Shown piece after piece: positions 4,487 to 64,000 of a stretch of DNA of 64,000 bases (the first letter of the stretch is position 1; every line of letters starts with the position of its first letter). A model generated the notes under the pieces. The model worked only from the letters and a program-made list of their open reading frames with translations. It was not told where the DNA came from and searched no databases. This DNA is from a virus. The position numbers were made by a program, and so were the translations under genes. The stretch is from positions 1-64,000 of IMG/VR virus record IMGVR_UViG_3300050120_000309. One strand, written 5' to 3'.

Positions 4487-7400
4487 CTACTTGACCGGTG
4501 AGGTGACGGGTAGGGTATTGCTCGGTGCGCCCTTGAAGAAGCGGTAGTCGTCGATAAGGGGATAGATGTTGTCTGCCTTGAACTCCTGGAACGAGTTCTG
4601 GATGTTCTGCCAGAAGTCACTGATCTGATAGCCTTCGAGTCCGCCCATCCAAGGACGTCCCCAGCGCGAGACCGGCATGATCTCCACCAGGTTGGAGGTT
4701 TGGCTCTTGTAGCCGGTGTAAATGATGCCGCCCATGATGGCCACACCAATGAGGGACTCGAGCACCCACTCCGGAGGCCCGCCGATAAGAGCAGCTCCTA
4801 CAGCAGCTGTGGTCGCCACGGCAGCTCCGCCAACCCCTGCCGCTATCTTGGTCGAGGTGTTGGAATGAACAATGGCCTGTCCCAGACCTGTCAAGTTACC
4901 GAGGCTTTTGCCCATGACCATGCAGAACATACGAGAGATGTTGGCGGTTGCCGCCTCATTCACAGTCGTAATGGCGCGGGGATAAACCGTGGTGGTACAG
5001 CCCGTCTCTTGGTTGAAGCTATGGAGAACATGATCGACTTCGACGATGCCGACAATGGCAGTCGAGGGGTCGAGCATGATGAGTGCATGACCTGGCTCGA
5101 TTTCAGGTGTCCCACGGAGGATGATCTCTCCCTCGTACATCTTGCCGAGCTCTTCCTTGAGAAAGCTTTGCTGAATCGCCTTGCACAAGTGATCGTATGG
5201 TTCGATGTTGGCTTCAGCATCGATAAGAAGATCTGTGACGTCGAGGATCCTGGTGTAGTGGGAAGGGATATTTCCATTGGCTGACGCAGTGTGCGCGCCA
5301 ACCCGGACAGCGTTGTAGATCTTGTCATTCACACGCATGCTGTTGTGAATGATCGACTGATGATCGATAAAGTGATGCATCCGCACAGGCTTCAAACGAT
5401 CGTCTGACGAAGGGTTCTGCATCTCAAGATACTTTAGCCAGAGCTGACGAACGGCGATGATCTCATTGCGAGCTGCACGCGTCCTGGAGTTCTGCGACGG
5501 ACTGTCAATATCATTGACGAATGTACCCAGCAACTGATCGGCATAGTTGAGGAAAGCCGGCGTCGACTGGAACGCCGCTAGGCCGACGAACTGTTGGACC
5601 TCTGTGTTGAGGCTGTCGAGCGCGGCGTAGAACTGTGCTGGTCCCGTAGGTACTGGCCAGCTGAGAGAAGCACCCTGATCCGTCTTGATCGCGGCAAACA
5701 TAGCAGCCCAGGCTGTAGCGCCCTGGGTATTCCACCACTGAGTGAACTGTGCATCACTGGTCAAAGAGGCATGATAGCGCTCTGCGTCCCCGATCATGGG
5801 CAGGCGGGCGAAATACCAGTCAAGTGGATGAGCTACAACCAGAGTCGCATCCGCCGAGAAAGGGAAGCCATACTGCTTCACAAGAACCTGATACTCCGGG
5901 TAGCGGCGAGAGATGTCCCTGATGATCTCCCAGATGGTCTTGGTCGAATTATCGGGGATCTTGTAGTCGAACTGGTAGTAGAGATCGGTCGTCGATTCAT
6001 CATAGAAGTCGCGCGTGAGGCGCTGCTTCGATGCGTCTCCAAGGTGGTTGATGACGTGATTGATGAGAATGTTCTCGCCGCTGCGGTCGTAGCTGGCCAC
6101 CATCGCAGCACCGATTCTGGAGACTTCATTGGTCGATGAGGAAGAGAACTCTCCGATCATCTTGCCGGCACGGTTTTCCCAGGTCAGTCCCGTAATGAGT
6201 GGATCTGACAGAGCCGCGAGCTTGAAACTCCCAAAGTGCTTGGCATTGTCCATTTTCAACATGGATTCAACAACACTGGCAACGTCAGCTGAGTCATGCC
6301 ACGGCTGCCATCCTCCCCGCTTCTTACCTGCAACCGCTTTCTGGTCTTTGGTCGGCAGCTCACACAGTTCAGCGAGGTAGCTTTCGGCCTCAATAGTCAG
6401 GATGTCATCACCTTCTACGGTTTCGACACGACCGGTGAACACTGGAGTAAGAAGATCAGGATTGTTGGAGTATCCCATCCGAATTTGGATCTTCGTGCCA
6501 GGCTGCAGGACCGCGTACTGCAGAGGTACGCGCTCTACCTTACCCGGTACGACACCGTCGCGGAGGTCGTAGCCGAGCAACTGCTGTACTTGATAAGCCT
6601 GACCACTGATGGTGCGACCTCCGACTAGGGCTGCATTGGGGTCTCCTCCTGAAACAGGGCCGGCACCAGACGCAGGTGTAGTTGAGAAGAACTCCCGCTT
6701 GTAGAGCTCCAGCTCGTACTTACCCTGGGAAGTGTTGTCGAAGAGTTTGTGCTGGAGGATGTTGGCGACGTTTGTGATTGTTATGCGCGCCAGATCCGGT
6801 TTGTCCTTGTACTTCATGACTTCAATGTCAAGCACCGAAGCATAAGAGTAGAAGTTGTCGAAGCCTTGGATCCAGCCCGGGGAGGCGTCCTCAAGCAGGA
6901 AGAGTTTGTAGGTCGGAAAGGCCTCAGCCATGCTGTAGCCTGGGATATTCGTCATCCGAACGAGACTGTTCGTGTCGGCATTCTGCCCAACGTACTCGCT
7001 CTCGGTGATGGCAATGTCGTACGAGTCTGGACGCACTGGGGTATTGACTGCAGCGGCGGTCTGAGTTGCAGCAGTGACCACCTGATCGAGACTCGAACGT
7101 ACATGAGCCATGTACTCATCGTTGTGATTGACGAAGTAGTAGCCAGGATTGAAGTCCGCTCCATTGACGGTCAGAGTATCCAGGCCCATGTCTTTATAAG
7201 CGCCATGTCCGGCATTGACGGAATCTAGCCCTGGCCCTTGTGGAGAGACAGCAGTCGTAAACTGAGCAGAGAACCTTGGGCTGTTCGCCAGGGTGTTGAT
7301 ATCCGTGGCGAAGTTGGCGTCATAGGAAGACAGCAGGGGAAAGATTGCGTCATAGACAGACTGAATGACCGCCTTTCGGGAGGGCACGTTGGTCAGACCT

Positions 7401-9697
7401 TGCGCTGTGTTGTCAGCAGCTGTCAGCCCGAAATCCAATCCCCAGTTTGAATTCGTCTCCACCAGGGCCTGGAGTAGAAACGCATCTCCATAGGTGAAGG
7501 TTCCGCTCTTGAGCATCGGCTGGAGGCGCTTGAGCATCGAGGGGTAACCGGCGGCTACTCCATTGGTGGCAAAGGGTGTCAGCATCGTCGTAACCTGCGC
7601 CGGCTTAGCGTCACAGGAACCTGTAGCTGAGAGGCCAGTGAAATCAACGGCCGTCACCTTCCCAAGCTTCTGAAGGAAACCGGCGAGAACAGGATAGCTG
7701 TAGGCAGCTCGACCTGCGGAGAACGACGACAACTCCGTGATGGTATTGGCTTCATCAGGAGTAAGGCTGGAGAGAGCTCCCGAACTGACAAGGGCGGCCG
7801 CCTGGATCACCGAAGCTGAATCCAGGGATCGGATCTTGAATGGAGACGAGACCTCAAAGATGTTCTCGTACTGAGAACCAGTAACTTCGCACATCACGGT
7901 GTCGGATGTGTTCCCAAGAGTCTGAGCACTGATGCGGTCGATCATCACACCACGAAGGCCCAGCATATTGAAGACCTTGTTCTCGAGGTAGAACGCCTGC
8001 ATCCTGTGAATGCTCGATACCGCGCGCCAGGTGTTTCTGAACTTCAGGTATTGTGCTTCGAGATACTCTGAGGCACCAGAGATTGCCCGAATTCCAGGGT
8101 GGCTCGGTTCAATATCTTCGGAAGCCCGCTCACCCTTCGACAGGAATCCAAGGGAGAACTTCGCGCTCGTACTTCCAATGTGCTGATAGGTCGGGTACTG
8201 GTATCCGGCGAGAGGGATCTGGGCCAGGTTATTGGTGAACAGGATCGAGAACGTCGTCGGGACCATGTCATAGTTGTGCTCGAGATCACCATGATTGGTG
8301 TCTGAGAAGGTCAGTTCCTGCTCTTGATAGAAGAAGGCAACGTCATTGACTGCATGGTCATAAGACCAGCCCTCCTCGATGAGCTTGAGAACGTGCGCAC
8401 TCTGTTCGGCGGTGAGGCTATCGCCCGGAGCCGAACCTGTTGTGTCAGCAATGGGAGTAAGAGCGGCAGGTTTAGCAGCAGTTGGTGGAGACGCTACGAG
8501 GACTGCAGGAATCTTGGACTTCTTGCCACCAGCCGCAGGATTCGAATACTGAGGGGCATACAGAGCAATGCCCTTTGCGTAGTCCGGTTCAGGACCCTCG
8601 TAGTAGCCCTTGCTCTTGAGCGCAGCTGCCAGGCCGGCAGCGGTCTTCGGGGTTGCAGCAATGACGGTGCCGTAGCGCTTTCCGGTCATAAGGCTGCCGT
8701 AATAGACACCAAAGTCTGCGATGGTGGCGAACGGCCGGTAGATCTTTGTCCCGGGCCAGCGTACTCCTCCCAGGTTGTTGAGGGTGCGGGCTCCGCGGTT
8801 GGTGAAACCCTGAGTCTCAAATGCCCATTGGCCAAAGATCAATTCAGCAGGGAGGCCTGTCTTCTGGGAAGCAGTCGCTGCCGCGGCGCGCGCGGCGGCC
8901 GCAATCGAAGATGAGTTAGCATTCGCTGCAATTTGTGGGACAACAGTGTTTTGAACAGCACTGGCGACAGCTGCCGTGGCAGCAGCGGAGACACCTGTTG
9001 CCACCATCGTACCGATCTTCTGGGTCTGGTACTGACGGTAGCGTAGCTTCACTGTGCCGTCGATCTGGTCACGCCAGTTGAGGAGTGGAGATCCGTCGTA
9101 TGACGACTCCGGCCCGCCATCCAGATTCTTCTGCTGCCATGAAGCGATGTATTGCTGGAAGGGAGCGCACAGATAGGCGTCTGTCGACTGTCCCTTGTCC
9201 CCGATGTAACCAAAGTCCGAGGAGTAGGGGAAGTAGTTGAACAGCGTCATCGTCAGATCGACATCGAGGACATCAATCAGGTCTGAATTGGTCTTGACAG
9301 ATAGCTGCCGCAGGCCGAATCCCATGCGGGAATTAGTCATGGACGAATCCTGCTCCGCAAGAGCCTGGCGGATGAATCCGTTCTCTACCTCAACGAAGGG
9401 CGCTGCGTGAAACATGGCCAGGATGGCACGGAGATCCTCCCACTGTTTGTAGCGTCCATCCTCAGTTGAAGCAGTGTCATCGATCATGACCTTGAAGGCC
9501 ACACTGACATCCCATCGAGACTGACCAGTCTTCTTGATCATGTCGTTGCGGCCACGTAGGGTCGTCAAACGGTCGTTGTTGACCAGCTTGTCGGACTTGA
9601 TGTCGGTCGGTGGAACGGACAGGACGATGTGTCCAATCCGGAAGTAGCCGGCCTGAGTGGGGTTGTTCTTCTCGTACTCGCTGAATGTGATCGACAC
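4487..9697 (-). CDS. Large baseplate hub protein with GH73/FlgJ-type peptidoglycan hydrolase domain
   Basis: GLPAELIFGQWAFETQGF...NNLGGV...YRPFATIAD...GYYEGPEPDY (approx. 8530-8900) is a glucosaminidase signature; LQPGTKIQIRMGYSNNPDLLTPVFTGRVETVEGDDILTIEAESY resembles gp27/gpD-like hub domains. Confidence 0.75.
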   Translation of the reverse strand: MSITFSEYEKNNPTQAGYFRIGHIVLSVPPTDIKSDKLVNNDRLTTLRGRNDMIKKTGQSRWDVSVAFKVMIDDTASTEDGRYKQWEDLRAILAMFHAAPFVEVENGFIRQALAEQDSSMTNSRMGFGLRQLSVKTNSDLIDVLDVDLTMTLFNYFPYSSDFGYIGDKGQSTDAYLCAPFQQYIASWQQKNLDGGPESSYDGSPLLNWRDQIDGTVKLRYRQYQTQKIGTMVATGVSAAATAAVASAVQNTVVPQIAANANSSSIAAAARAAAATASQKTGLPAELIFGQWAFETQGFTNRGARTLNNLGGVRWPGTKIYRPFATIADFGVYYGSLMTGKRYGTVIAATPKTAAGLAAALKSKGYYEGPEPDYAKGIALYAPQYSNPAAGGKKSKIPAVLVASPPTAAKPAALTPIADTTGSAPGDSLTAEQSAHVLKLIEEGWSYDHAVNDVAFFYQEQELTFSDTNHGDLEHNYDMVPTTFSILFTNNLAQIPLAGYQYPTYQHIGSTSAKFSLGFLSKGERASEDIEPSHPGIRAISGASEYLEAQYLKFRNTWRAVSSIHRMQAFYLENKVFNMLGLRGVMIDRISAQTLGNTSDTVMCEVTGSQYENIFEVSSPFKIRSLDSASVIQAAALVSSGALSSLTPDEANTITELSSFSAGRAAYSYPVLAGFLQKLGKVTAVDFTGLSATGSCDAKPAQVTTMLTPFATNGVAAGYPSMLKRLQPMLKSGTFTYGDAFLLQALVETNSNWGLDFGLTAADNTAQGLTNVPSRKAVIQSVYDAIFPLLSSYDANFATDINTLANSPRFSAQFTTAVSPQGPGLDSVNAGHGAYKDMGLDTLTVNGADFNPGYYFVNHNDEYMAHVRSSLDQVVTAATQTAAAVNTPVRPDSYDIAITESEYVGQNADTNSLVRMTNIPGYSMAEAFPTYKLFLLEDASPGWIQGFDNFYSYASVLDIEVMKYKDKPDLARITITNVANILQHKLFDNTSQGKYELELYKREFFSTTPASGAGPVSGGDPNAALVGGRTISGQAYQVQQLLGYDLRDGVVPGKVERVPLQYAVLQPGTKIQIRMGYSNNPDLLTPVFTGRVETVEGDDILTIEAESYLAELCELPTKDQKAVAGKKRGGWQPWHDSADVASVVESMLKMDNAKHFGSFKLAALSDPLITGLTWENRAGKMIGEFSSSSTNEVSRIGAAMVASYDRSGENILINHVINHLGDASKQRLTRDFYDESTTDLYYQFDYKIPDNSTKTIWEIIRDISRRYPEYQVLVKQYGFPFSADATLVVAHPLDWYFARLPMIGDAERYHASLTSDAQFTQWWNTQGATAWAAMFAAIKTDQGASLSWPVPTGPAQFYAALDSLNTEVQQFVGLAAFQSTPAFLNYADQLLGTFVNDIDSPSQNSRTRAARNEIIAVRQLWLKYLEMQNPSSDDRLKPVRMHHFIDHQSIIHNSMRVNDKIYNAVRVGAHTASANGNIPSHYTRILDVTDLLIDAEANIEPYDHLCKAIQQSFLKEELGKMYEGEIILRGTPEIEPGHALIMLDPSTAIVGIVEVDHVLHSFNQETGCTTTVYPRAITTVNEAATANISRMFCMVMGKSLGNLTGLGQAIVHSNTSTKIAAGVGGAAVATTAAVGAALIGGPPEWVLESLIGVAIMGGIIYTGYKSQTSNLVEIMPVSRWGRPWMGGLEGYQISDFWQNIQNSFQEFKADNIYPLIDDYRFFKGAPSNTLPVTSPVK

Positions 9698-9699
9698 TA

Positions 9700-12600
9700 T
9701 TACCCTTCCAGGGCTTGCTGCATCTTCTCGCGGGTGCGGAGAGAGCCGGGCTTCATTTGATCGCGGTAGTTGATCGTGACGGTTGAGCTGCCATCAGTTG
9801 CCATGCGGGCCATCATCTTGGCGGTATGGTGCGCGCGCTGCTGATCGGAAGAACGGAGACGGACATCGAGGTCTCGTGTCTCGCCAAGGGGCGCAACGGT
9901 TGTGGTGCGGGTTTGTGCTGGGGCGGAATTGACGTTCCGTGGTGGGCGGGAAGGTGCTCGGGATCCGGCGGGACCATCTCCTGGAACCATGTCGGGACCA
10001 GGGTGAGTCTCTTCCGGACGATACTTGCTCGTGGAGTCCCGGCCAAAGGCTGCAAATGGTTTGCTGAGGCGGGTTGTTGCAATGCCTGCGATGACGGCGG
10101 CCGCGGCGCCTATGCCGAGAACCATACCAATCTTGCTTCCACGAGCCTCACGGGCAACGCTTTCAGCTGTCCGAGTCACCTCATTGAGAGTTCCCAGAGC
10201 TTCTGCCGACCAGGTGCTGGCGGCGCCGGCGGCAGTCCGCGCTTCTTCAGCTGTCGTACTGGCGGCTTGAGAGTAACTGAACATCTCCGAACCCATACCC
10301 AGAGTCTTGGCACTCGCTGCGTTCTCTGCCGGCGTCGTCATGGCCTGGACTGCCTGATCGACTGCTTCACGATCGAATCCACTGTGAAATTGTTCGAGGA
10401 TCTCGCGGTTCTCAGCAAGATAGTCACGGAATGAGGTACGGTCGTTGCCATCGGCAGCGTCCGCCAGCTGGCCCAATGAACCGTAGAAGTGATCGAAGGT
10501 GCCACCCTTACGCATGGAGTTACGCAAGCTGCTGTCGATCTCCAGCGCCTTAGCCAGATCGAGATCGTTCTGATTCTTGAGCTTCATGCCCGAGATCGGA
10601 CCCTGTTTCACAGCCTGCATGAAGAAGGTTGACAGGCTGCTCTTGACTTGAGAATTGGTGATGTTCCGATTCTCTTCGAGTGCCGCCATCATCATGGAGT
10701 AGGTATTCGAACCTGAACCGACAGCTCCGCCGACGGAACGACGACGAAGCGCTTCGTTCCGGGTGTAGAACTTCTGATCCTTGAGACGGCCGAGGAAGGA
10801 CTTGTAAGCACCTTCCTTCGTCCCAACTGTCTGACGAGTCTCGTCACCAACGCCAACAAGGTTCTGCAGATCAGGGACATCCAAGTTCTGAGAGGACTTG
10901 GGGTTCATGACTGCTTCGCGTGCTTCGGCTATCGCATCTTCAGAGTCGAGATAGGAAATGTTCGGACGGTCACCGTCCATATCGAGCATCATTAGCGCAC
11001 GGATCCGCTCATCGATGCCAATACCGGTTGCCTTGTTGAGGTGAGGATCGAGAACGACTCGAACTAGTGGAACGTGCCCTACGGGCTCGCGACTCAGCAT
11101 CGCAAAGACGTCCTCTCCATTGAGGAGGGCGTCACGAACCTTCTTGCTCCGAATCTTCCTGGCCTGGGCCTTACCGATGGCAACTTCCCATGGGTTGATA
11201 GCGCCATCTGCATAGCGCATGCTTGAGGGGCGTGTGTGGGAGGCGAGGGTCTGGGAGAGAGGATCAACTGGGCCGCTACGATAGAAGCTGTCCTTGCCAT
11301 GGACGAACTTCTTCAGCGTGTCCTTATAGGCTTCAGTCTGTCTGGCGATCGTTCCTTCATCAGCGCCCTCCTCATGCATCTTCATGAGCTGGAAAAGAGC
11401 GCTTTCGTGCTCATTTGTTGAGAATTGACCGGCGCCGTAGCGGTTGACCTTGCCACCATAGGCACTATGGCCGAGTACGGGCACAGCGCTGCCGTCGGGC
11501 ATCTTCAACATGAAGTTGTTCTCAGCAGCGACATTGCCTGGATCAAAGATGGAACCAGCACGATTGGAGGCAGTCGTAATGCTACGAGTGCCCGGTGCAA
11601 TGGCATCGCCGAGACTGATCGTGTTTGAGATCGCAGTCTCATCACCCTGGAAGTGCTTGAGCAGATCACGAGTCTGGGTTAGATCGCCGTCATACTTGAG
11701 GCGGCCGGTGATGTTGCCCGCTACGCCATGGTGGCCGCGGATTACCAGCTGCTGCTGGGTGTAGTAGGCGAACTTGGTCTGCTTCGGGACGTTGTAGGCC
11801 ATGTCGTCGGTGATGCGCAGCTCTGAAGGCATGGCATAACGATTGACATAGTCGGCCCAGGGAGTCTTTCCGCCCTTCTCAACATGGGCAGCATAGCTCT
11901 GCATGAACTCATCGCCACGGACTGCATGCGAGGTGATGCGGTCGGAGACATCCTGGAGCATGTTCTTCAGAACAGTGTCTTCTTGCTGAATACGCTCGGG
12001 TGTACGGATGCCCTGCTTGGTGAGGTCCTGATTGAGAGTGCCGTTGTTGTACGCGAAACCAGCCTCAGCCAGGGGATCCCGCCACTTCGACATCACGGGC
12101 TCAAGCTCACCATGCTCCTCCAGACGGCGGAGGGAGTCAGAAGAGATACGAGATAGTGCATCCTGCAGCTCCGAGTCCTTGTTGGTGAACGAACCCTGCG
12201 AAGCGTACACATCAACCTCACGCGGGATGAAGCCGCCGGCTCCGGTGGCGTCGCGGTAGTTGTTCAGACCAGTGCGGAGGCGCTCACTGTCTCCAGTACG
12301 ATCGAAGCTCTGAAGAATGCCTTTCTGGGAGCCGACATTGAACTTGGTGCCTGTCTCGATGTCCTTGACTTCACGCACGACAAAGCGAGTCGTTCCGTCA
12401 CCCATGTTGTGAGTGTTCTCAATGAAGTTCTCTGCTCCCTGTGCGGTGACAGGATTGCCGTTGCGTCGGCCGAGAAGGATCTTGCTTGGGCCATAGACCT
12501 TCTTACCTTCGGCGCTGAGGGTGAAGGTGCGCTTCCCGTCCTCATCGAGAAGGCCGTAGTGCTTCTCCATGGATTGCCCCATGAAATTCTCCCAGCCGGA

Positions 12601-14697
12601 GACAGCCTCTTCATTGACGTCATAGGCCATGTAACGCTCGACACGCGCGCCATTCAGATTACGGGCAGACAAGAAGTCGCCCTCGCCAGCCCGGCCGGCG
12701 GACTTCATGGCACGGAAGTTGCCCGGCTCGGAGAGGTGCTGCACGACCTTGAACCATGCGTCCTTAGCACCGGCGTGATCCAGCTTATGTTCCGCCTGCA
12801 TGATCGACATAGCGGTCAGGTCGTAGCGGCCATTGGCAGCAAAGGCTTCAAGGTATGCACTGAGGCGAATTGCTTTGGTCTCGGCACTGGTCACGCGGCC
12901 TACCCGGGATAGCTCTTGCTCGATTTGACCTTCAGCGTAGGAGGTTACATCCGGCATGTCACCGAATAGGGTCTGCTCACCAGGAGTGATCCCAGCAACG
13001 CGTACGCCCATGACCGGATCGACGATGCCCTCAGCTGCAATCTTCCCGGTCGAAGCGAAGGGGCTAAGGCTGTCACGAACTGGAGAAACTCCTTTGAAGG
13101 TCTCAGCGGGCATGGCGATGCGAATGTTCTTGGTGATGGCGCGATAGACGGAATTCTGTTTCTCAAGGCTGGCATTGCGAGAGAGATCACCAACGTGGTG
13201 GGCATAGAGCTTGAACTCGGGAACACCACCTTCAGAGCCCAGAGGAATCAGATTGTGGTATTCGGCCGCGGAGACACCGGCCTCGACGAAGTCGGCCGCT
13301 CCGGTCTTGCCCTTGCGCAGCTGTCGCAGTCCTTTGCCAGGTCCGCTTTCAGCGTTGCCGAAGCCGAACAGATCGGAAGGCAGGTACTCGTACTGACGGA
13401 GTTTCTGCGCACCATTGCGCTGGACGTACTCCCCATAGGTTGTGTCACGGTATGCGGACCAGCTGTCAGACTGGTCAACCATGCCATACATGTTGGTGCG
13501 CTTGAGCTCCTCACCCACGGTCTTGATACCGAAGCCGCGGCCGAGGGCTTCGAAGGCATAAGCATCGGACTTCCATGCGTCACGCGCTGTGTACACATTA
13601 CGAGCCACGCCCCTGCGCTGGAAGCTGGATCCAGTACGAATCTCACCGTCCTTACCCACAACAGGAATGGTCAGGCCCTTCCGTTGGCCAGCTGGTTTAT
13701 AGGTGAGGCCGACGATGGCGTTGCCGTCTTCCTCTGATGTTTGAATGCTCAGATACTTGGGGTTGAAGCGTTGTCCCTTTGCCCCACCGGACCGGATCGC
13801 GCGCTCAATCGAACCAAAGAGGTCAGGTCGTGAGGTGGCGAGCTCGGCGCGCAGACCTTCGGCGTCGTTCCAGCCCACGCTGCTGATGAATGTCTTGGGA
13901 CCGGCGCCCGCGGCGCGCGCTCCGCCGGGATCGAAGAAGTTCTTCTTATCTGCCATGCGAGACGTCAATCCCTTGATGAACTTGACGTCACCACTGGAAG
14001 CAGTTCCTTCACGGAAGGCCTTGACTTTGCCCTTCATGATCAGCTTGATGTCCTTCTCGGTGAGCATCGGGGCGTTCCGAGGAATGACCTTGGCGCCAGG
14101 CCCCTTCATACCGTCGTTCAAACTCTCGGCGTACTCAGCTAGGCCGGCAGCATCCAGGCTCCGAAGCTTCTCGGCGTGGATGGCGTTCGAGATATAGCGC
14201 ATGTTCTTGCTGGTCTTGAGATCAGCATCGACGATCGTTTCCAAGGTGGTCGCTACGCGGTTGTAGTCGCCCTTACTGCGCGTCATGCCGGCGTAACGGC
14301 GGCGCTTGACGGTCTGGAACTGCTCGAGTGCGATCTTCTGCTGTTCATAGGCGCGCTGAGCCTCTTTGATGTCGGTGTAGGAGACTTCCTTGCCATGAAC
14401 AGACTGCCGCCATTGACGGTGCGCCTTGGGCATGCCGACCATGCGCGTCATGTTCTGGGACACGGTAGGTCCCATGGTGGAAGCTGAATAAGCCACAGCT
14501 CCAATGAGAGGTGTGGTGAACGCAGCAGTCTGGCTGTAATCCCGGTTCTCGTTCTGAAGCAGAGCTGGTGCCAGAAGCATGGCAGCGGCAGCGGCCGTTG
14601 CACTGCGGGGATGACCCTTCGCGAAGGCCACACCACTGCGCTTGATCGCGGTGGCGCGGTCTTTGGCGCGGGTGAGGAACCTTGTATCGATGGGCAT
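9700..14697 (-). CDS. Putative single-chain two-barrel (double-psi beta-barrel) RNA polymerase, probably virion-associated
   Basis: Beta-like GTKFNVGSQKGIL (K785/K792) followed by EVDVYAS; beta'-like LSREP (R1203) 36 residues before DMDGD (1239-1243, nt 10969-10983); located within the tail gene block. Confidence 0.7.
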   Translation of the reverse strand: MPIDTRFLTRAKDRATAIKRSGVAFAKGHPRSATAAAAAMLLAPALLQNENRDYSQTAAFTTPLIGAVAYSASTMGPTVSQNMTRMVGMPKAHRQWRQSVHGKEVSYTDIKEAQRAYEQQKIALEQFQTVKRRRYAGMTRSKGDYNRVATTLETIVDADLKTSKNMRYISNAIHAEKLRSLDAAGLAEYAESLNDGMKGPGAKVIPRNAPMLTEKDIKLIMKGKVKAFREGTASSGDVKFIKGLTSRMADKKNFFDPGGARAAGAGPKTFISSVGWNDAEGLRAELATSRPDLFGSIERAIRSGGAKGQRFNPKYLSIQTSEEDGNAIVGLTYKPAGQRKGLTIPVVGKDGEIRTGSSFQRRGVARNVYTARDAWKSDAYAFEALGRGFGIKTVGEELKRTNMYGMVDQSDSWSAYRDTTYGEYVQRNGAQKLRQYEYLPSDLFGFGNAESGPGKGLRQLRKGKTGAADFVEAGVSAAEYHNLIPLGSEGGVPEFKLYAHHVGDLSRNASLEKQNSVYRAITKNIRIAMPAETFKGVSPVRDSLSPFASTGKIAAEGIVDPVMGVRVAGITPGEQTLFGDMPDVTSYAEGQIEQELSRVGRVTSAETKAIRLSAYLEAFAANGRYDLTAMSIMQAEHKLDHAGAKDAWFKVVQHLSEPGNFRAMKSAGRAGEGDFLSARNLNGARVERYMAYDVNEEAVSGWENFMGQSMEKHYGLLDEDGKRTFTLSAEGKKVYGPSKILLGRRNGNPVTAQGAENFIENTHNMGDGTTRFVVREVKDIETGTKFNVGSQKGILQSFDRTGDSERLRTGLNNYRDATGAGGFIPREVDVYASQGSFTNKDSELQDALSRISSDSLRRLEEHGELEPVMSKWRDPLAEAGFAYNNGTLNQDLTKQGIRTPERIQQEDTVLKNMLQDVSDRITSHAVRGDEFMQSYAAHVEKGGKTPWADYVNRYAMPSELRITDDMAYNVPKQTKFAYYTQQQLVIRGHHGVAGNITGRLKYDGDLTQTRDLLKHFQGDETAISNTISLGDAIAPGTRSITTASNRAGSIFDPGNVAAENNFMLKMPDGSAVPVLGHSAYGGKVNRYGAGQFSTNEHESALFQLMKMHEEGADEGTIARQTEAYKDTLKKFVHGKDSFYRSGPVDPLSQTLASHTRPSSMRYADGAINPWEVAIGKAQARKIRSKKVRDALLNGEDVFAMLSREPVGHVPLVRVVLDPHLNKATGIGIDERIRALMMLDMDGDRPNISYLDSEDAIAEAREAVMNPKSSQNLDVPDLQNLVGVGDETRQTVGTKEGAYKSFLGRLKDQKFYTRNEALRRRSVGGAVGSGSNTYSMMMAALEENRNITNSQVKSSLSTFFMQAVKQGPISGMKLKNQNDLDLAKALEIDSSLRNSMRKGGTFDHFYGSLGQLADAADGNDRTSFRDYLAENREILEQFHSGFDREAVDQAVQAMTTPAENAASAKTLGMGSEMFSYSQAASTTAEEARTAAGAASTWSAEALGTLNEVTRTAESVAREARGSKIGMVLGIGAAAAVIAGIATTRLSKPFAAFGRDSTSKYRPEETHPGPDMVPGDGPAGSRAPSRPPRNVNSAPAQTRTTTVAPLGETRDLDVRLRSSDQQRAHHTAKMMARMATDGSSTVTINYRDQMKPGSLRTREKMQQALEG

Positions 14698-57935: not shown

Positions 57936-58145
57936 TTACTTGATGACCCCATTCATCTTGAGTACAGCCTGGAGGTTCTCTATACCAACGGCGACCCGGA
58001 AGATCGCAGGGGTGAGTGCTTCGATTGCCAGCATGATCAGAACCAGGCAGGTCGTTACCGACCAGTGCGCGTGAAGAGCCACCTGGAAGAGCAGAGCTCC
58101 TGTGATAATCCACCGAATACCACGGATGAGGTGTGCCTTCGTCAT
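57936..58145 (-). CDS. Small membrane protein (probably leaderless)
   Basis: MTKAHLIRGIRWIITGALLF...; box at 58174-58182. Confidence 0.6.
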   Translation of the reverse strand: MTKAHLIRGIRWIITGALLFQVALHAHWSVTTCLVLIMLAIEALTPAIFRVAVGIENLQAVLKMNGVIK

Positions 58146-58210
58146 TCCTGCAGCGTAGTGGCTCAGAAGGGCTGAGCCAAAGGCGCCGTCACGCGAACCG
58201 GAAATCACTT

Positions 58211-58543
58211 TTATATATGCAGGGGCGGAGTAAGTGTCTTGATTCTCAGGTTCTTGGCAATGACAGCATGCTCAGGTTCATTGGGATCAAAGACAAGGAC
58301 ATGTACCGCCTGCTCTCCAGCAACCCATCCCAGATTCTTCATCATATGGAGCAAGTCTATGACATCGTCAGAAGATAGGGACCAGTCGAGCTGGCCCTGA
58401 TCGTCCGTGCCTGTGGTGATCCCGAAGACCGGTAGAGCTGGGGGGTGTTGTGAGGTGCGGTGCCCTGGATCCGTGTTGGCTCTCGGGTCGTTGTCAAAGA
58501 TGACTGTGGCGTTGTCGATGGCTTCGTTGAATGACATACTCAT
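58211..58543 (-). CDS. Hypothetical protein (probably leaderless)
   Basis: GTTTGGCTG (58573-58581)-N16-TACTAT-N7-ATG 58543. Confidence 0.6.
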   Translation of the reverse strand: MSMSFNEAIDNATVIFDNDPRANTDPGHRTSQHPPALPVFGITTGTDDQGQLDWSLSSDDVIDLLHMMKNLGWVAGEQAVHVLVFDPNEPEHAVIAKNLRIKTLTPPLHI

Positions 58544-58775
58544 GGCGCCCATAGTAAGCGGCGCACTACTGCCAGCCAAACTCACTTTTATATATGTGGA
58601 GAATGCTCCGCACTGATCGCAGATTGGTGCTCGGAAAACGCTTTGCCAATGGGGATACCAGGGTAATAAGGGTTACCCGATATGGACACTAATCGTTTCG
58701 AGCCCACCCCGGGTGAACCAGGGGTACTGATGTCCACACATCAGCATAACCGTAACACTTACAAGGAGATACACA

Positions 58776-59339
58776 ATGGATACTCATAAGTTCGCAGACG
58801 TCGTCGCATCAGAACTCGGTCTACCCAAATACAAGGTAGTCGTTCAACGTGAGCTCGAGGGAATCAACGCAATGGTTGTTCCTGTAGTCAACGAGATCTG
58901 GCTCAGCCAGCAGATGGTTGAGGAACTCACCAACGAAGAGATCTGTGCAGTCATCACGCATGAGCTTGCTCATCCCTATCACTCGCATCTAGCTAAGCGC
59001 AACGCAGTGTCAGCAGGTCAGTTCATCCTGTCAGGCATCAATCTGTTCCTGCCATTGCCTATCTGGAAGAAAGTAGTCATCGAGCTCGGCATGTCGACGG
59101 TCGCTGCGATCGCCAAGCACAAGATGTTCTGTGCTCAAGAGTATGAAGCAGACGAAATGTCCTTCCGCTATCACCTGCAGGGATCACTGGTCTCTGCATT
59201 GAACAAGATCGAAGCATCAGCACAAGAGCTTCAGAAGAAGTCGGGTCAACCACAGTGGATGCTGGCATTGGGTAGCTTGACTCACCCCAAGACAGCCGAT
59301 CGTATCGCTCGTCTCAGTGTGCCCGTGATCAATCGCTAA
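58776..59339 (+). CDS. M48/HtpX-like zinc metallopeptidase
   Basis: INAM, EEICAVITHELAH, QEYEADE, LVSALNKI, LTHPKTADRIARL; AAGGAG SD. Confidence 0.85.
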   Translation: MDTHKFADVVASELGLPKYKVVVQRELEGINAMVVPVVNEIWLSQQMVEELTNEEICAVITHELAHPYHSHLAKRNAVSAGQFILSGINLFLPLPIWKKVVIELGMSTVAAIAKHKMFCAQEYEADEMSFRYHLQGSLVSALNKIEASAQELQKKSGQPQWMLALGSLTHPKTADRIARLSVPVINR

Positions 59340-59373
59340 TAGCCCTATACCTCAGATTCACAAGGAGAATCAC

Positions 59374-59586
59374 ATGGAATTCATCAAGAAGTACACGTCG
59401 TATCTCCCGGATATGCCCTCAACCTCTGAGGTCATCAAGCACATGGATAGCTACCTGCTCGATAAGAGCAAGGCGGTTACCGAGTTTCTCGATGAACACC
59501 CTGGTATCGCTATCCTGCTCAGCCCTACAAGTATCACGCGTCGCGCAGCACAGAAGCATGTCGACAACATGCTGCACCAGAAGTAG
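59374..59586 (+). CDS. Hypothetical protein
   Basis: 70 aa, AAGGAG SD. Confidence 0.7.
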   Translation: MEFIKKYTSYLPDMPSTSEVIKHMDSYLLDKSKAVTEFLDEHPGIAILLSPTSITRRAAQKHVDNMLHQK

Positions 59587-59674
59587 CAATGTTCCACGTG
59601 GAACTCACTGGTCACCCAATTGGGTGGCCTTCGCTGTTTATGGACACATAACCCATGCAATAGGAGAAATCACA

Positions 59675-59788
59675 ATGTTCAGCTACGAAGTAAAAGGCAT
59701 GTCCCCTCAGGTATTCGTCTCCCTCATCCTCACCGGTATGTTCATCGCCACGATCGCTATTGGTCTTGGTTTCCGCTACGCAGCGTAG
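59675..59788 (+). CDS. Small single-TM protein (37 aa)
   Basis: MFSYEVKGMSPQVFVSLILTGMFIATIAIGLGFRYAA; AGGAG SD. Confidence 0.65.
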   Translation: MFSYEVKGMSPQVFVSLILTGMFIATIAIGLGFRYAA

Positions 59789-59829
59789 TCGTAGTTTCAC
59801 GGACCATAACCCAGATCAAGGAGATCATC

Positions 59830-59958
59830 ATGCACGTATTACTCGCCAAAGTAATCGCTACTGTCCTCGTATCTATCGCAACACTCACTTACATAGCGTA
59901 CGTGTCTTACAGGCCAAAGAATGCAGGTCCTGTAACTGATTACAAGCACTGGCTTTAG
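59830..59958 (+). CDS. Small single-TM protein (42 aa)
   Basis: MHVLLAKVIATVLVSIATLTYIAYVSYRPK...; AAGGAG SD. Confidence 0.65.
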   Translation: MHVLLAKVIATVLVSIATLTYIAYVSYRPKNAGPVTDYKHWL

Positions 59959-60028
59959 TGGTCGGACATTAGCCCTCAGAGATGAGGGCCTTTGTCTGCC
60001 CATTGGGGTAGAGACAGAAAGGAGAAGT

Positions 60029-60475
60029 ATGAAATCTGTCGAGGAACGATTCTGGTCCAAAGTCATCAAGCAGCCTAACGGGTGCTGGATATGGACTGGA
60101 GGAGTAAACGCAATCCATGGCTATGGCAGGTTCTGTCATAGCTCAACTGAAGAGAAGGCACATCGATATAGCTATCGCTTGGCTAAAGGAGAGATACCGG
60201 AAGGTCTCAATCTCCTGCATTCCTGCGATGTCAGAAGATGTGTAAACCCTGACCATTTGAAACCTGGTTCACAGTTGGAAAACGTCCAGGACTGTGAGTC
60301 CAAAGATCGATTCAATCACCCACAAGGTGAGAGTCATGGCAGCGCAAAGCTGACTGCAGCTCAAGTTGAAGAGATTAGAGGTCTTGCAGGCAAAATGCCC
60401 CACTCAGCAATAGCGGCAAAGTTCGGTATGAGTAGATCTCATGTCGGCAATATCTGTCGTGGCGCCAAGTGGTAG
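60029..60475 (+). CDS. HNH homing endonuclease with C-terminal HTH
   Basis: RFWSKV...CWIWTG...YGRF...AHR...LHSCDVRRCVNPDHL...EN; AKLTAAQVEEIR...IAAKFGMS. Confidence 0.9.
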   Translation: MKSVEERFWSKVIKQPNGCWIWTGGVNAIHGYGRFCHSSTEEKAHRYSYRLAKGEIPEGLNLLHSCDVRRCVNPDHLKPGSQLENVQDCESKDRFNHPQGESHGSAKLTAAQVEEIRGLAGKMPHSAIAAKFGMSRSHVGNICRGAKW

Positions 60476-60574
60476 ATGTACCTGCGGTGCAAGCCCATAA
60501 GCACCGTATGTGCCAGAGACGTGGTCCAAACACGTCTCTGGCTTACTTCAACTACCAGATCAAGGAGAATGATC

Positions 60575-63364
60575 ATGTCCAACAATACCAAGAAGACCCT
60601 CGCCCTCGTCAAGGAAATGGAACTGAAGCCCCGCGTTCGTGTCCCCTACGTCGCAGGTGTTCACAGCCACTTCCACGCCCCAACCATGTTCCACAGCACC
60701 TGGGAAACGTCGAACTTCTTCGACATGTTCCTCCCAGAGGGTGTGAACTATGTTGAGGTGTCTGTACTCGGCCGTACTGAGGATGAACTGGATGCCAACA
60801 CATCCTGGTTCGACCACATCGGACGGGAAGGTCTCAAGATCCAAGGTGTTACGCACCGTGTGATCTTCGGTGACTGGGATGACGACGGAGTTGCCATCAT
60901 GGTGCCGGCGGACGCAGTGAAGGGACTTCAAGACCTCGGTCTATCCCTCCAAATCAATGGACCCGCAGATAAGGCTAAGGTACGCAAGTACTTCCGTCGT
61001 ATCCGCGCGCACCACGAATGGGCCATCTCGGGCGCAATCGTTGCCACCAAACAGGTGGAGAATGGTGAGGTACTGACCGTTGCTCCGGATAGCCAGTCGG
61101 ACATCCGGTTCGATATGCTCCATGTCGACCTCAAGGGCATGGACCCAATCAACGTAGCACTCGCTGATGGTGTACACCTCATCGATGTCAACCTGTGCCA
61201 TACCATTGGCCTGGCCTACGGCATCGATAAGCTCACCAACGTCAAAGTGGGTGATGCGTTCAAGGGAACAGCACTCTCAGGTCTCGGCCTGGGTAAGGGC
61301 TTCTTCCATGTCGTTGAGAACGCAACCTATGGAATCGTCCTGTATGGAGCGAAGAAGCAAGTCACGTTCAGTGAGTTCTTCCTCGGCTCACTCGGAGATG
61401 TCAAGGGTGCTGATGTGGCCTATTCGGACCTTCAGTCAACCATCAACTTCGACTATCACCAGGGCGAAATGCTCTATAACCAGTCCGTCCTGTTCATGCA
61501 GGAAGTCATGGAGGCAATCCACAACGAAGACAAGATGCGCCACGTGTTCCTGACACACATGGCTCCGATCTCCGAGATCCTCAGCAATGAGGAAGATGGC
61601 GGTCGTGAGTCCTGGGTACTGCTCGAAGCACTCCGCAAGGGTGTTCCGGTCAGCGCGCAGGGACCAATGAATCCCGGCCTGTTCCGCAGGGTGGTGCGTC
61701 ATCTGTTCACACACGTGCTCGATGCAACCAAGGGACGTGTTCCCTTGACTGGTATCGTGGGACGTTTCAACCTCATGCCTGACCTCAACTGCTTTCTCGA
61801 AGATGGATCTGTGGACTATCGTCTCAGCTCTATCCCAGCAGAAGCTGTGGTCTGCATGGATCTCGATCAGGGCCCATTGGCCATGTATCGTCAGCCCTCG
61901 GGACACAAGAAGGAGCTGGTCAGCACGAACAATGTGCATGACCGTCGCTTCAAGAAGTTCCGTGGTCAGAACCGTATCATCCTCGGTGCAGATGCACTAG
62001 AGTATCTCGCCATCATGGGTGGTGGAGATATGGACGATGCGGTCAATGCAACCGTCAACCTGTCCTGGGTGGAGACAATGGCAACTGGGTCATACCCGTT
62101 GACTGCACTCCCCGCGGCACAGAGCACCAAGGCACTCGACGCAGACAACAAGTATCGTCGTGGTCCTGCCTATCCCCGTCAATGGTCGATGATCGACTTC
62201 TTCGAAGCAGTTGCTGCTTCCAAGGAGAAGGCATCCATGTCCATTGGTGTCGTCGTCAACGCAATCATGCTGGATGAACTCCTGTCCGGCGTGCATAAGG
62301 AGAACATGCTTACCGATATCGCCGATCGCATCGTTGATGCCAAGGATGAGTCGGAGAAGCATGACCTCCGTGTCGCCTATGACTGGCTCCGCAACCGTGA
62401 GGATCGTATCCTCCGTGTCGTGGCTTCCAATCTGGAGGCATTCATCGATCAGAGCAAGACTGGTGCAGGTGATGCTGCTGTATTGGCATCATTCACCGCT
62501 CTCATCAACGAGGTCCGTAACAACAGCATGGTGATCCCCTCGTCGTTCATGATCAAGAACAACAAGGGCCGTGAGCGTGTGCCAGCTAAGCGTCTCATGG
62601 ATATGGACTTCATCACAGCGCCCTCGCTCGTCTGCGAGACGCTCAACCGTATCAAGTTCGAAGCCGATCAGATGCAGGAGGCTCTGGTCGAGGAGCAGTG
62701 GCTCAACGTGGACAGCATTCCTGACTCGTTGGACGCAGCATTCCCACGCAGCAAAGCACACCGTGAGGAGGCATTCGAGCTCCGTATGGCATGGGGTGAG
62801 GCATTTCAATCCCAGCCCAATGCAGACCTGGCGATTCGCTATAAGAACGCCATAGATAACGTGGTCAAACCAGCCTTCTTGAACAAGGAATTGTTCGAAG
62901 AGGACAAGGTTCAGATCGCAGTGGAGCATGCTCGTCTCACCTACCGTGGTCGCAAGACTCAGGCAGAGCGTGGCGAGAATGGTCGGTTCCGGAACTACCC
63001 TGATGGGCTGCTCTGGACCAACACCATCGGTCTGTACTACATCAAGGCGCTCGAAGAGGCTGGACTTACCGGTCTGTATGTACCGGTTCAGTTCGATCGC
63101 TGGAGCCGCAACCTCAGCCGTGGTGCATTTGATGTCCGGGTCGTAGCCGGCATCGTTCTGCGCGCGGAAGATGACATGATGCTCGGAACCACGTTCAATG
63201 TCCTCGATGAAGTAGAGGATGGTATCTATCCCATGATCGATGGCATGATCACCGTCCAGGCACCTGCAGCTGAACTGCGGGCGCCTCGCAACATCGTCAA
63301 TGAGTCGTTCGACAACCCCATGGAGCTGGACTTCGATCTTGATGAAGTCTTTGCCCGTGGCTAG
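60575..63364 (+). CDS. Single-subunit two-barrel RNA polymerase of the cellular RdRP/YonO-like type (variant DxDD catalytic loop)
   Basis: Ordered motifs LADGVHLI, AFKG...GKGFF, MYRQP, MGGGDMDD (62027-62038); R to first D spacing 46 aa; start moved to ATG 60575 behind AAGGAG. Confidence 0.75.
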   Translation: MSNNTKKTLALVKEMELKPRVRVPYVAGVHSHFHAPTMFHSTWETSNFFDMFLPEGVNYVEVSVLGRTEDELDANTSWFDHIGREGLKIQGVTHRVIFGDWDDDGVAIMVPADAVKGLQDLGLSLQINGPADKAKVRKYFRRIRAHHEWAISGAIVATKQVENGEVLTVAPDSQSDIRFDMLHVDLKGMDPINVALADGVHLIDVNLCHTIGLAYGIDKLTNVKVGDAFKGTALSGLGLGKGFFHVVENATYGIVLYGAKKQVTFSEFFLGSLGDVKGADVAYSDLQSTINFDYHQGEMLYNQSVLFMQEVMEAIHNEDKMRHVFLTHMAPISEILSNEEDGGRESWVLLEALRKGVPVSAQGPMNPGLFRRVVRHLFTHVLDATKGRVPLTGIVGRFNLMPDLNCFLEDGSVDYRLSSIPAEAVVCMDLDQGPLAMYRQPSGHKKELVSTNNVHDRRFKKFRGQNRIILGADALEYLAIMGGGDMDDAVNATVNLSWVETMATGSYPLTALPAAQSTKALDADNKYRRGPAYPRQWSMIDFFEAVAASKEKASMSIGVVVNAIMLDELLSGVHKENMLTDIADRIVDAKDESEKHDLRVAYDWLRNREDRILRVVASNLEAFIDQSKTGAGDAAVLASFTALINEVRNNSMVIPSSFMIKNNKGRERVPAKRLMDMDFITAPSLVCETLNRIKFEADQMQEALVEEQWLNVDSIPDSLDAAFPRSKAHREEAFELRMAWGEAFQSQPNADLAIRYKNAIDNVVKPAFLNKELFEEDKVQIAVEHARLTYRGRKTQAERGENGRFRNYPDGLLWTNTIGLYYIKALEEAGLTGLYVPVQFDRWSRNLSRGAFDVRVVAGIVLRAEDDMMLGTTFNVLDEVEDGIYPMIDGMITVQAPAAELRAPRNIVNESFDNPMELDFDLDEVFARG

Positions 63365-63372
63365 CACCGCAA

Positions 63373-63719
63373 CCTGTGCGGTGAATAGAAGCCTTATTCA
63401 CCGCATGGGCAACCCAACGGACCGGGTTGAATGCCTCATATGCTGCGCTTATGACCCATAAAGGGCCTATATGCCTCGTATATGAGTCATTCACGCCGGC
63501 CTGAGTGGATATACCACCAGACTTACCGGATGTTCTGATCCACACCAATACGGGGCCAGTGAAGTCGCCCTGGATGTCGTATTGAATGGAAATAGAGCAC
63601 ATGACACCACACCCTGCCCGCTAACGCGCGCATCTGGTCGTGGCCTCCTAGCTGGTGAAGCCCGTGAAACGGAAGTAAGGGTAGTGGAAGTGAGAACTAA
63701 ACACTTCTCCTGATTAGCG
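63373..63719 (+). ncRNA. Candidate structured non-coding RNA / structured intergenic region
   Basis: About 350 nt with no convincing ORF and at least six hand-foldable stems. Confidence 0.4.
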
Positions 63720-63760
63720 CTCACACCCCACCCCAATACCTTCAACACAGGAGATTTCAC

Positions 63761-63991
63761 ATGAAAGCTGCCTTCGACATCACATTCGTTGACGTGCGCC
63801 TGCCCAATAAGCAGAAGCGCCAGCACTTAGTCCTTCGGGCCGACAACCAGAAGCAAGCACGGGAGCTATTCGGCTCACAGAAGGGCTCTGACTTCAAGGC
63901 TCTGTCTGTCGATGAGGTATTGGCTACGGTCAGCCCTGCATCGCTGGAAATGCTCACCACTCGGTTCAAGGACCATCGAATCGCAGCCTAG
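63761..63991 (+). CDS. Hypothetical protein
   Basis: 76 aa, AGGAG SD. Confidence 0.7.
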   Translation: MKAAFDITFVDVRLPNKQKRQHLVLRADNQKQARELFGSQKGSDFKALSVDEVLATVSPASLEMLTTRFKDHRIAA

Positions 63992-64000
63992 TACATCCCT

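Follow-up and report, generated by a model that had tools for sequence, protein, structure and literature searches.

Can a two-barrel polymerase work with a metal-binding loop that reads Asp-x-Asp-Asp (DxDD)? In reviews, the DxDxD motif is among the few residues common to all two-barrel polymerases, including bacterial RNA polymerase (RNAP), Pol II, QDE-1, YonO and PolD, and its spacing is treated as invariant for the superfamily (PMC2919709, PMC7824862). The question is raised by a gene on a 64,000-nucleotide stretch of viral DNA (positions 1 to 64,000 of IMG/VR record IMGVR_UViG_3300050120_000309; hereafter the window), which lies in a 95.9-kb IMG/VR contig (G000) with a CheckV completeness estimate of 45%. 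An earlier note, made from the letters of this DNA alone, had described the gene product as a polymerase resembling phage YonO and the RNA-dependent RNA polymerases (RdRPs) of eukaryotic RNA interference (RNAi). From profile comparisons and a predicted structure, the gene appears to be a homologous member of this YonO and eukaryotic RNAi-RdRP lineage of single-subunit two-barrel polymerases. We consider it very probable that the product is an active two-barrel nucleotide polymerase, and probable that it is specifically a non-virion, DNA-dependent transcriptase. The features discussed below are collected in Table 1.

An AlphaFold2 model of the protein, built from a 30-sequence alignment (mean predicted local distance difference test score, pLDDT, 84.6; predicted template modelling score, pTM, 0.79), contains a pair of domains of the double-psi beta-barrel (DPBB) type that form a catalytic core. 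When the model was searched against the PDB with Foldseek, the top matches were QDE-1 of two fungi (E 1.2e-16 to 1e-13) and RDR2 of maize and Arabidopsis (E 3.6e-15 to 1e-9), followed by the Thermus-phage RNAPs P32 gp64 (E 1.7e-5) and P74 gp62 (E 7.4e-5). Lower matches included gp96 of P23-45 and gp66 of phi14:2, a crAss-like phage, and the tail of the list consists of multisubunit RNAP large subunits. A second structural comparison, in which VIA-align was used to align the model with all representatives, gave Z 16.2 for ZmRDR2 (634 residues), 14.5 for QDE-1 (653 residues), 12.3 for P74-26 gp62 (508 residues), 10.0 for P23-45 gp96 (352 residues) and 7.5 for phi14:2 gp66 (552 residues). Residues ~391–507, the predicted second barrel, align on their own to the beta'/Rpb1 DPBB of African swine fever virus, Sulfolobus, Pol I, Pol III and the non-virion RNAPs of PhiKZ and AR9 (Z 5.3–7, root-mean-square deviation 2.6–3.4), and also match isolated DPBB domains. 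The two-barrel fold that the earlier note had anticipated is thus what the model predicts, with QDE-1 and RDR2 as its best matches and the phage single-subunit two-barrel RNAPs next. A palm-domain polymerase (GDD or YxDD-like) was considered and is ruled out by the fold.

Predicted structures in other collections gave a similar set of neighbours. In BFVD these are proteins of uncultured phages, with a best E of 2e-19, the P23-45 protein A7XX94 and entries under the name 'RNA dependent RNA polymerase'. Neighbours in the ESM Atlas include unnamed clusters labelled Acidobacteriota, phage clusters in which 32–39% of members carry PF05183, and plant RDRs at TM-scores of 0.61–0.64.

The likeness to the RNAi RdRPs (QDE-1 and RDR2; PF05183) includes a single chain of similar size, a superposition over ~630–650 residues, and a shared motif order: a barrel-B Asp-Gly, a basic residue followed at some distance by KG, RxP, and a Gly-rich Asp loop. 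In contrast, identity is ~12%, and the PF05183 hidden Markov model (HMM) does not match the DxDD protein, either in an hmmscan of the protein (E<=1) or in a six-frame search of the whole 95.9-kb record (E<=10). The loops of the RdRPs read DYDGD or DLDGD, whereas the loop here is DxDD; the basic pair is 6 residues further apart in the phage protein; and the DxDD enzyme is encoded by a double-stranded DNA (dsDNA) phage. One way to read the structural ranking is that the enzyme is mainly an RNA-dependent RNAP, or is dual DNA/RNA-templated like QDE-1, and makes complementary or double-stranded RNA for regulation or for interference with host defence. The strongest and longest matches are indeed RDR2 and QDE-1, and QDE-1 has both activities (PMC9508822). 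We nonetheless think this unlikely, given that the gene belongs to a tailed dsDNA phage, in which genes for a portal, a terminase and tail proteins are present, and that the characterised phage members of the fold class (YonO, gp64, gp96 and gp66) are all DNA-dependent. The RdRP-leaning ranking may, moreover, only mirror what the PDB contains; to our knowledge, there is no solved structure of YonO.

At the level of primary sequence, the protein belongs to a family of its own. A metagenomic protein search recovered 50 clusters at 26–68% identity, each of them labelled 'hypothetical' and without a Pfam domain, and an exhaustive phmmer search gave at least 119 family representatives at 50% identity clustering. 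Searches of annotated resources with the polymerase protein were negative: Pfam gave only an insignificant PUA_3 match, PHROG gave no match, and tblastn against 50,697 isolate phage genomes found no relative. PDB sequences returned only chance matches to phmmer and to the family profile, and none to the barrel alone. A profile search of a 5.8-billion-protein set with an 82-member alignment found nothing outside the DxDD family, and locus scans of viral contigs with family alignments yielded few loci (A1, one; A4, none; A5, two). Without a PF05183 match, a PHROG or a relative in an isolate phage, the protein does represent the divergent subfamily that had been proposed for it.

Conservation was counted in this alignment of 82 diverse full-length members, which are 19–65% identical to the query; residue numbers throughout are those of the database gene call (P0002, a 931-aa product with its start at 60569). 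K140, G201, K243, P443, D487, D489, D490 and D627 are each present in 82/82 members. R144, G244, G485 and G560 are each found in 81, R441 and Q289 in 80, and K262 and N564 in 79. Every member that spans the loop has a Gly-rich D-x-D-D, and DxDGD occurs in none, so that the outcome in which all homologues keep DxDGD and only this copy departs from it, through inactivation or a sequencing error, did not arise. In the DNA, the loop codons at 62027–62038 read gat atg gac gat, that is D-M-D-D, at the place where the earlier note had located them. Contigs of two independent soil metagenomes carry closely related but non-identical copies across these codons, with no indel listed. With the loop invariant in homologues, a sequencing error is excluded and an inactivated copy is strongly disfavoured, and we therefore rejected both explanations. 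The longest open reading frame (ORF), 60476–63364 on the plus strand, gives a stop-free translation in which the four motifs of the earlier note appear in the order it had claimed. With these residues invariant or nearly so in 82 homologues, and with a profile match to YonO-like proteins at E 1.5e-8, the motif set is not a chance one.

Some family members differ in architecture or integrity. In one member of 1100 aa (P0079), the polymerase is preceded in the same chain by a 'putative DNA-binding phage zinc finger' (PF24623, 1.5e-6) at the N-terminus, and several others have unannotated N-terminal extensions of 250–370 aa; besides the one zinc finger, Pfam searches of the longer members gave no informative extra domain. 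A homologue on a contig of the Acidobacteriota MAG (L013:9983-12865) is split into frames of 84 aa and 762 aa plus a tail, and these frame breaks may stem from misassembly instead of marking a pseudogene.

The late genes of SPbeta are transcribed by YonO, a processive DNA-dependent RNAP that loses its activity when its Asp triad is mutated (PMC5467207). We compared the family with six YonO-like proteins from isolate phages, namely SPbeta YonO and the proteins of Perkons, PMBT24, BUCT082, TR-TP1 and D-1873, in all of which the R-x-P and D-x-D-G-D columns are invariant (D535/D537/D539). Profile–profile alignment of the 82-member family with these six in hhalign gave Prob 95.5% and E 1.5e-8 over 188 columns, and, with permissive extension, Prob 96.2% and E 2.7e-9 over 683 columns. 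The relationship to YonO is thus upheld at the profile level. An alignment of the single YonO sequence with the family profile had a Prob of only 0.6% and a register two residues off, and is superseded by the profile–profile result. The two groups share RxP, IGxxxN, IDxxK and the first two Asp, and both consist of phage-encoded single-subunit proteins of 840–930 aa. Among the six YonO-like proteins, the counterparts D249-G250, G593/N597 and D625/K628 listed in Table 1 are likewise invariant. They differ in that the YonO-like proteins keep DxDGD and in that tblastn detects no pairwise similarity between the groups. The hosts of YonO-like phages are Bacillota, whereas the host of the DxDD phage is probably an acidobacterium, and YonO itself belongs to a temperate phage, in which it drives late genes.

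A gene for an HU/IHF-like DNA-binding protein occurs within one or two genes after the YonO-like gene in Perkons, PMBT24, BUCT082, TR-TP1 and D-1873, a linkage that is conserved across distant Bacillota phages. None of the eight neighbouring ORFs scanned in the window is HU-like.

The profile alignment also places the loop in register. The first two Asp of the family, D487 and D489, pair with the first two of YonO, and at the third the family is one residue short: D490 stands opposite the YonO Gly, and the third Asp of YonO stands opposite A491 in the ungapped alignment or is treated as an insertion in the extended one. On the simplest reading, DxDD is DxD(G)D after loss of the Gly, in line with the earlier note's contrast between DxDD and DxDGD. 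Three observations fit this reading: a strand of the model starts right after D490, many members read N-G-A-D-x-D-D, and Gly-rich residues precede the first Asp. We found no paper describing DxDD in a two-barrel polymerase in a search of the literature.

Eight residues have been described as universal in two-barrel RNAPs: the three loop Asp, one Asp of the other barrel, the Arg and Pro of RxP, and two Lys (PMC2919709). In QDE-1, the first two loop Asp hold both cations, and the third serves cation A alone; D709 contacts cation B via water, the phosphates of the nucleotide are gripped by R738, K743 and K767, and the product strand is bound by a short helix that precedes the first barrel (PMC9508822). 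The DxDD family has a candidate for each QDE-1 active-site element, in the same order. D200 is a candidate for the fourth catalytic carboxylate and would match Rpb2 D837 and QDE-1 D709. K232 and K243-G244 are candidate ligands of nucleoside triphosphate and RNA phosphates in the first barrel; their order and context are those of the YonO-like R-x4-KG (R266, K271, G272) and of QDE-1 R738/K743, with a spacing that is 6 residues longer. K262 is a possible counterpart of QDE-1 K767, and the basic helix of residues 134–146 would, by analogy, correspond to the DPBB1 auxiliary helix of QDE-1 and contact the product strand. An invariant Arg-x-Pro is expected ~35–45 residues before the Asp loop in enzymes of this class, and here R441 precedes D487 by 46 residues. 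The three Asp are likewise kept, as had been noted earlier, each of them invariant and at an altered spacing. If the Gly is missing, D490 would, one residue nearer, substitute for the third Asp, the cation A-only ligand in QDE-1. Such a change would leave the cation B ligands untouched and would shift, by one position, only the ligand that is exclusive to cation A.

The loss of the canonical metal-triad spacing might instead suggest a catalytically dead derivative, with the fold kept for nucleic-acid binding or for a structural or regulatory role. Dead enzymes usually shed catalytic residues irregularly. Here, full or almost full conservation across 82 members, with identities down to ~20%, covers all three Asp, RxP, K243 and the Asp-Gly of barrel B, and we regard a dead enzyme as extremely unlikely.

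The position of the gene bears on what an active enzyme would do. The left side of the window, up to ~58.6 kb, holds minus-strand structural genes, including those for terminase, portal, an endolysin-domain protein and three giant proteins of 1336–1736 aa, and a plus-strand arm of mostly small genes begins at 58,776. The DxDD gene is at or near the head of this non-structural arm, 1.8 kb from the strand switch. In a relative (L009) it is the first gene after the strand switch, and in the complete 215-kb phage G001 it is close to a switch. It could be argued that the DxDD enzyme is itself packaged in the virion and injected, as is the crAss-like gp66, given that phi14:2 gp66 and P23-45 gp96 are both packaged two-barrel RNAPs. 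This is quite improbable, however, for an enzyme of ~930 aa that is not fused to structural domains and whose gene lies away from the structural module, on the other strand and among small non-structural genes, in a phage that has a separate giant DxDxD protein in its tail/virion module.

That giant protein, of 1665 aa, is one of three giants next to the tail genes. In its family, with eight homologues, K785, K792 and G793 (K-x6-KG), R1203, P1205, D1239, D1241 and D1243 are invariant, and the motifs are kept (RQP...DDDLD) in a 1645-aa homologue in G001 that is 23% identical. Its central 701 residues were modelled with low confidence (pLDDT 58.5), and this model aligns, over residues 318–583, with Rpb1/beta' subunits at Z 9–10.4 over 200–240 residues. 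Alignment of the 1665-aa family by hhalign with the DxDD family and with YonO-like proteins was not significant. The protein is a likely candidate for an injected RNAP and looks more beta'-like than YonO-like. It co-occurs with the DxDD enzyme in G000, in G001 and in a metagenome-assembled genome (MAG) of Terracidiphilus (G005), and probably also on the contig of 141,917 bp with P0004 and P0169. In neither G000 nor G001 was an Rpb1-type domain detected. The gene adjoining that of the candidate virion RNAP (4487–9697, minus strand) encodes a giant protein of 1736 aa that has a glucosaminidase/endolysin domain at its N-terminus and is probably ejected to degrade the cell wall.

A comparable pair of enzymes is known from Thermus phage P23-45, where the virion RNAP gp96 transcribes pre-early genes, including the gene for the non-virion two-barrel RNAP gp64, and gp64, in turn, transcribes early genes from promoters of its own (PMC10770324). 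P23-45 gp64, P74-26 gp62 and gp96 resemble the present system in fold and in the combination of a two-barrel candidate in the virion module with a smaller, non-structural one. Unlike the DxDD enzyme, gp64 and gp62 have ~600 aa and carry DxDxD, and unlike gp96, which is a tape-measure fusion, the virion candidate here is free-standing, with a barrel region that resembles beta'/Rpb1 subunits more than it resembles gp96. The phi14:2 protein gp66 has a two-barrel fold that is QDE-1-like according to the literature (PMC10770324), but it is a packaged protein of 2180 aa with DFDxD, whereas the enzyme described here, with 930 aa and DxDD, comes from a gene that is not in the structural module.

Two strand-faithful motifs reported in the earlier note are real: the 9-mer CTTTGGCTC has 10 exact sites and the 12-mer TTCCTATACTAG has 6, and neither occurs in 58.2–68 kb. 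In the interval 58000–64000, no sigma-70-like promoter was found, compared with 4.9 ± 2.0 expected from shuffles. A block at 58.2–68 kb without the two motifs or sigma-70-like promoters is consistent with, but does not prove, a first transcription class of its own to which the polymerase gene belongs.

Archaeal PolD uses the two-barrel fold for DNA synthesis (PMC10770324), and the altered Asp loop could accordingly be tied to a changed substrate in a replicase or primase. No DNA polymerase was found on the window's contig, which is 45% complete. However, the complete relative G001 encodes a family-A DNA polymerase, so that the two-barrel enzyme need not be the replicase, and sequence homology runs to the YonO-like RNAPs. 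No PolD chain is among the matches listed by Foldseek and VIA-align, which is weak evidence. Taken together, a DNA-synthesising enzyme is very unlikely.

We hypothesize that the DxDD enzyme would be made soon after infection from the non-structural plus-strand arm, which could itself be transcribed by the 1665-aa virion protein or by the host RNAP. The enzyme would then transcribe later phage genes from phage-specific signals, in a cascade of a virion and a non-virion RNAP such as that of P23-45.

Several observations weigh against the reading of the DxDD protein as an active, early DNA-dependent transcriptase. The beta'-type barrel does not have the canonical DxDxD, its three Asp being kept at an altered spacing, and catalysis with DxDD is therefore inferred from conservation. 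When the first barrel alone was aligned with the YonO-like proteins in hhalign, the result was not significant (Prob 2%), and the mapping of the lysines is for this reason an inferred one. The best structural matches are RNA-dependent enzymes, so that the template cannot be assigned, in agreement with the earlier statement that template preference is not readable from sequence. As to timing, the early expression proposed previously is deduced from gene position only.

A broader reading takes the DxDD proteins for a deep-branching clade of active single-subunit two-barrel polymerases, which would be the first exception in nature to the 'invariant' DxDxD triad. On this reading, their full-length architecture is closer to that of the eukaryotic RNAi RdRPs than is that of any characterised phage enzyme, and the family could therefore be the phage lineage nearest to the ancestor of the eukaryotic RdRPs, or could itself use RNA templates; we hold this broader reading only tentatively and consider it doubtful as a whole.

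Table 1. Coordinates of the polymerase gene, its predicted functional elements and associated features in the window. Fractions are counts among the 82 aligned members; YonO-like counterparts are from the hhalign alignments.
Feature	Position (nt)	Strand	Residues	Conservation or remarks	YonO-like counterpart
1665-aa virion-module protein	9700..14697	-		One of three giants next to tail genes; candidate injected RNAP	
Upstream hairpin	60512..60542	+		Perfect 12-bp stem, 7-nt loop; between HNH gene stop and polymerase Shine-Dalgarno sequence	
Shine-Dalgarno sequence AAGGAG	60562..60567	+		7 nt before ATG 60575, 1 nt before ATG 60569	
Polymerase gene	60575..63364	+		929 aa from ATG 60575; homologues begin at equivalent position	
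Basic helix before first barrel	60968..61006	+	134-146	K137 73/82, K140 82/82, R144 81/82; model secondary structure	
First beta-barrel region (DPBB-B/DPBB1-like)	61019..61399	+	151-277	Model strand pattern; within RDR2/QDE-1/gp62 structural alignments	
Motif LADGVHLID	61160..61186	+	198-206		
D200-G201 of 'ADG'	61166..61171	+	200-201	Position 200: D 71/82, E 7/82; G201 82/82	D249-G250 (TDG; extended hhalign)
Motif DAFKG...GKGFF	61253..61306	+	229-246		
Basic pair K232 and K243-G244	61262..61300	+	232, 243-244	Position 232 R/K 53/82; K243 82/82; G244 81/82	
K262	61352..61354	+	262	79/82; counterpart by order and spacing only	
Second barrel (DPBB-A)	61739..62089	+	391-507	Holds RxP and Asp loop; aligns alone to beta'/Rpb1 DPBB	
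Motif LAMYRQPSGH	61877..61906	+	437-446		
RxP (R441-Q-P443)	61889..61897	+	441-443	R 80/82, P 82/82	R492/P494
Motif AIMGGGDMDDAV	62009..62044	+	481-492		
Metal-binding loop DxDD (D487-M-D489-D490)	62027..62038	+	487-490	Between helix 476-482 and strand 491-495 of model	D535 (D487), D537 (D489)
IGxxxN (I559-N564)	62243..62260	+	559-564	G560 81/82, N564 79/82; common to YonO-like proteins	G593/N597
IDxxK (I626, D627, K630)	62444..62458	+	626-630	D627 82/82; common to YonO-like proteins	D625/K628
Downstream hairpin	63377..63405	+		Perfect 11-bp stem, 7-nt loop; 13 nt past polymerase stop codon	

Of the two ATG codons at the start of the polymerase gene, ATG 60575 is the better supported, because the spacing of the AAGGAG sequence favours it over ATG 60569. 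The two hairpins that flank the gene each lie shortly past a stop codon and lack a U-tract; for a phage RNAP, they might serve as terminators or as sites of processing. An Rfam search of 58–64 kb gave no match, hairpins included.

Directly upstream of the polymerase gene is a free-standing HNH homing endonuclease gene (60029–60475, plus strand; HNH_3 7e-8, PHROG 826 3e-30). It is not found at that position in two relatives (L009 and L012) and is therefore probably a mobile insertion beside a conserved gene. The first gene of the plus-strand arm (58776–59339, plus strand) encodes an M48/SprT-like zinc metallopeptidase (Peptidase_M48, 1.6e-15). Elsewhere on the 95.9-kb contig, an ATP-dependent DNA ligase is encoded at 81754–83415 (L016:17754-19415; PHROG 114, 1.8e-23), with a 62% identical homologue on L013. 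Adjacent genes for a ribose-phosphate pyrophosphokinase and a nicotinamide phosphoribosyltransferase at 90003–92565 (L017:6003-8565) form an NAD+ salvage pair, as in large phages.

The window sequence was found in a peat metagenome, related copies occur in soil metagenomes, and one homologue is filed under a Sphagnum assembly. Relatives are found on contigs binned with a Terracidiphilus MAG and with an uncultured Acidobacteriota MAG. The hosts are probably Acidobacteriota, based on this binning and on the Acidobacteriota-labelled clusters in the ESM Atlas.

The branch to which the gene is assigned by profile and predicted fold, that of YonO and the RNAi RdRPs, is known; what is new is a sizeable, unannotated phage family with a re-spaced catalytic triad. 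This family, for which there is no Pfam or PHROG model and whose members are listed as 'hypothetical', joins the short list of phage single-subunit two-barrel RNAPs and widens its range to large phages of Acidobacteriota from soil and peat. An HMM of the family would improve the annotation of soil viromes. The presence of the DxDD enzyme together with the 1665-aa protein suggests a second example of a virion and non-virion RNAP cascade, built from two very different two-barrel enzymes. With at least 119 clusters in which DxDD is strictly kept, the family is a natural test of how far the two-metal site tolerates re-spacing, and it raises the question of whether the third Asp, the cation A-only ligand in QDE-1, can be supplied from an adjacent position.

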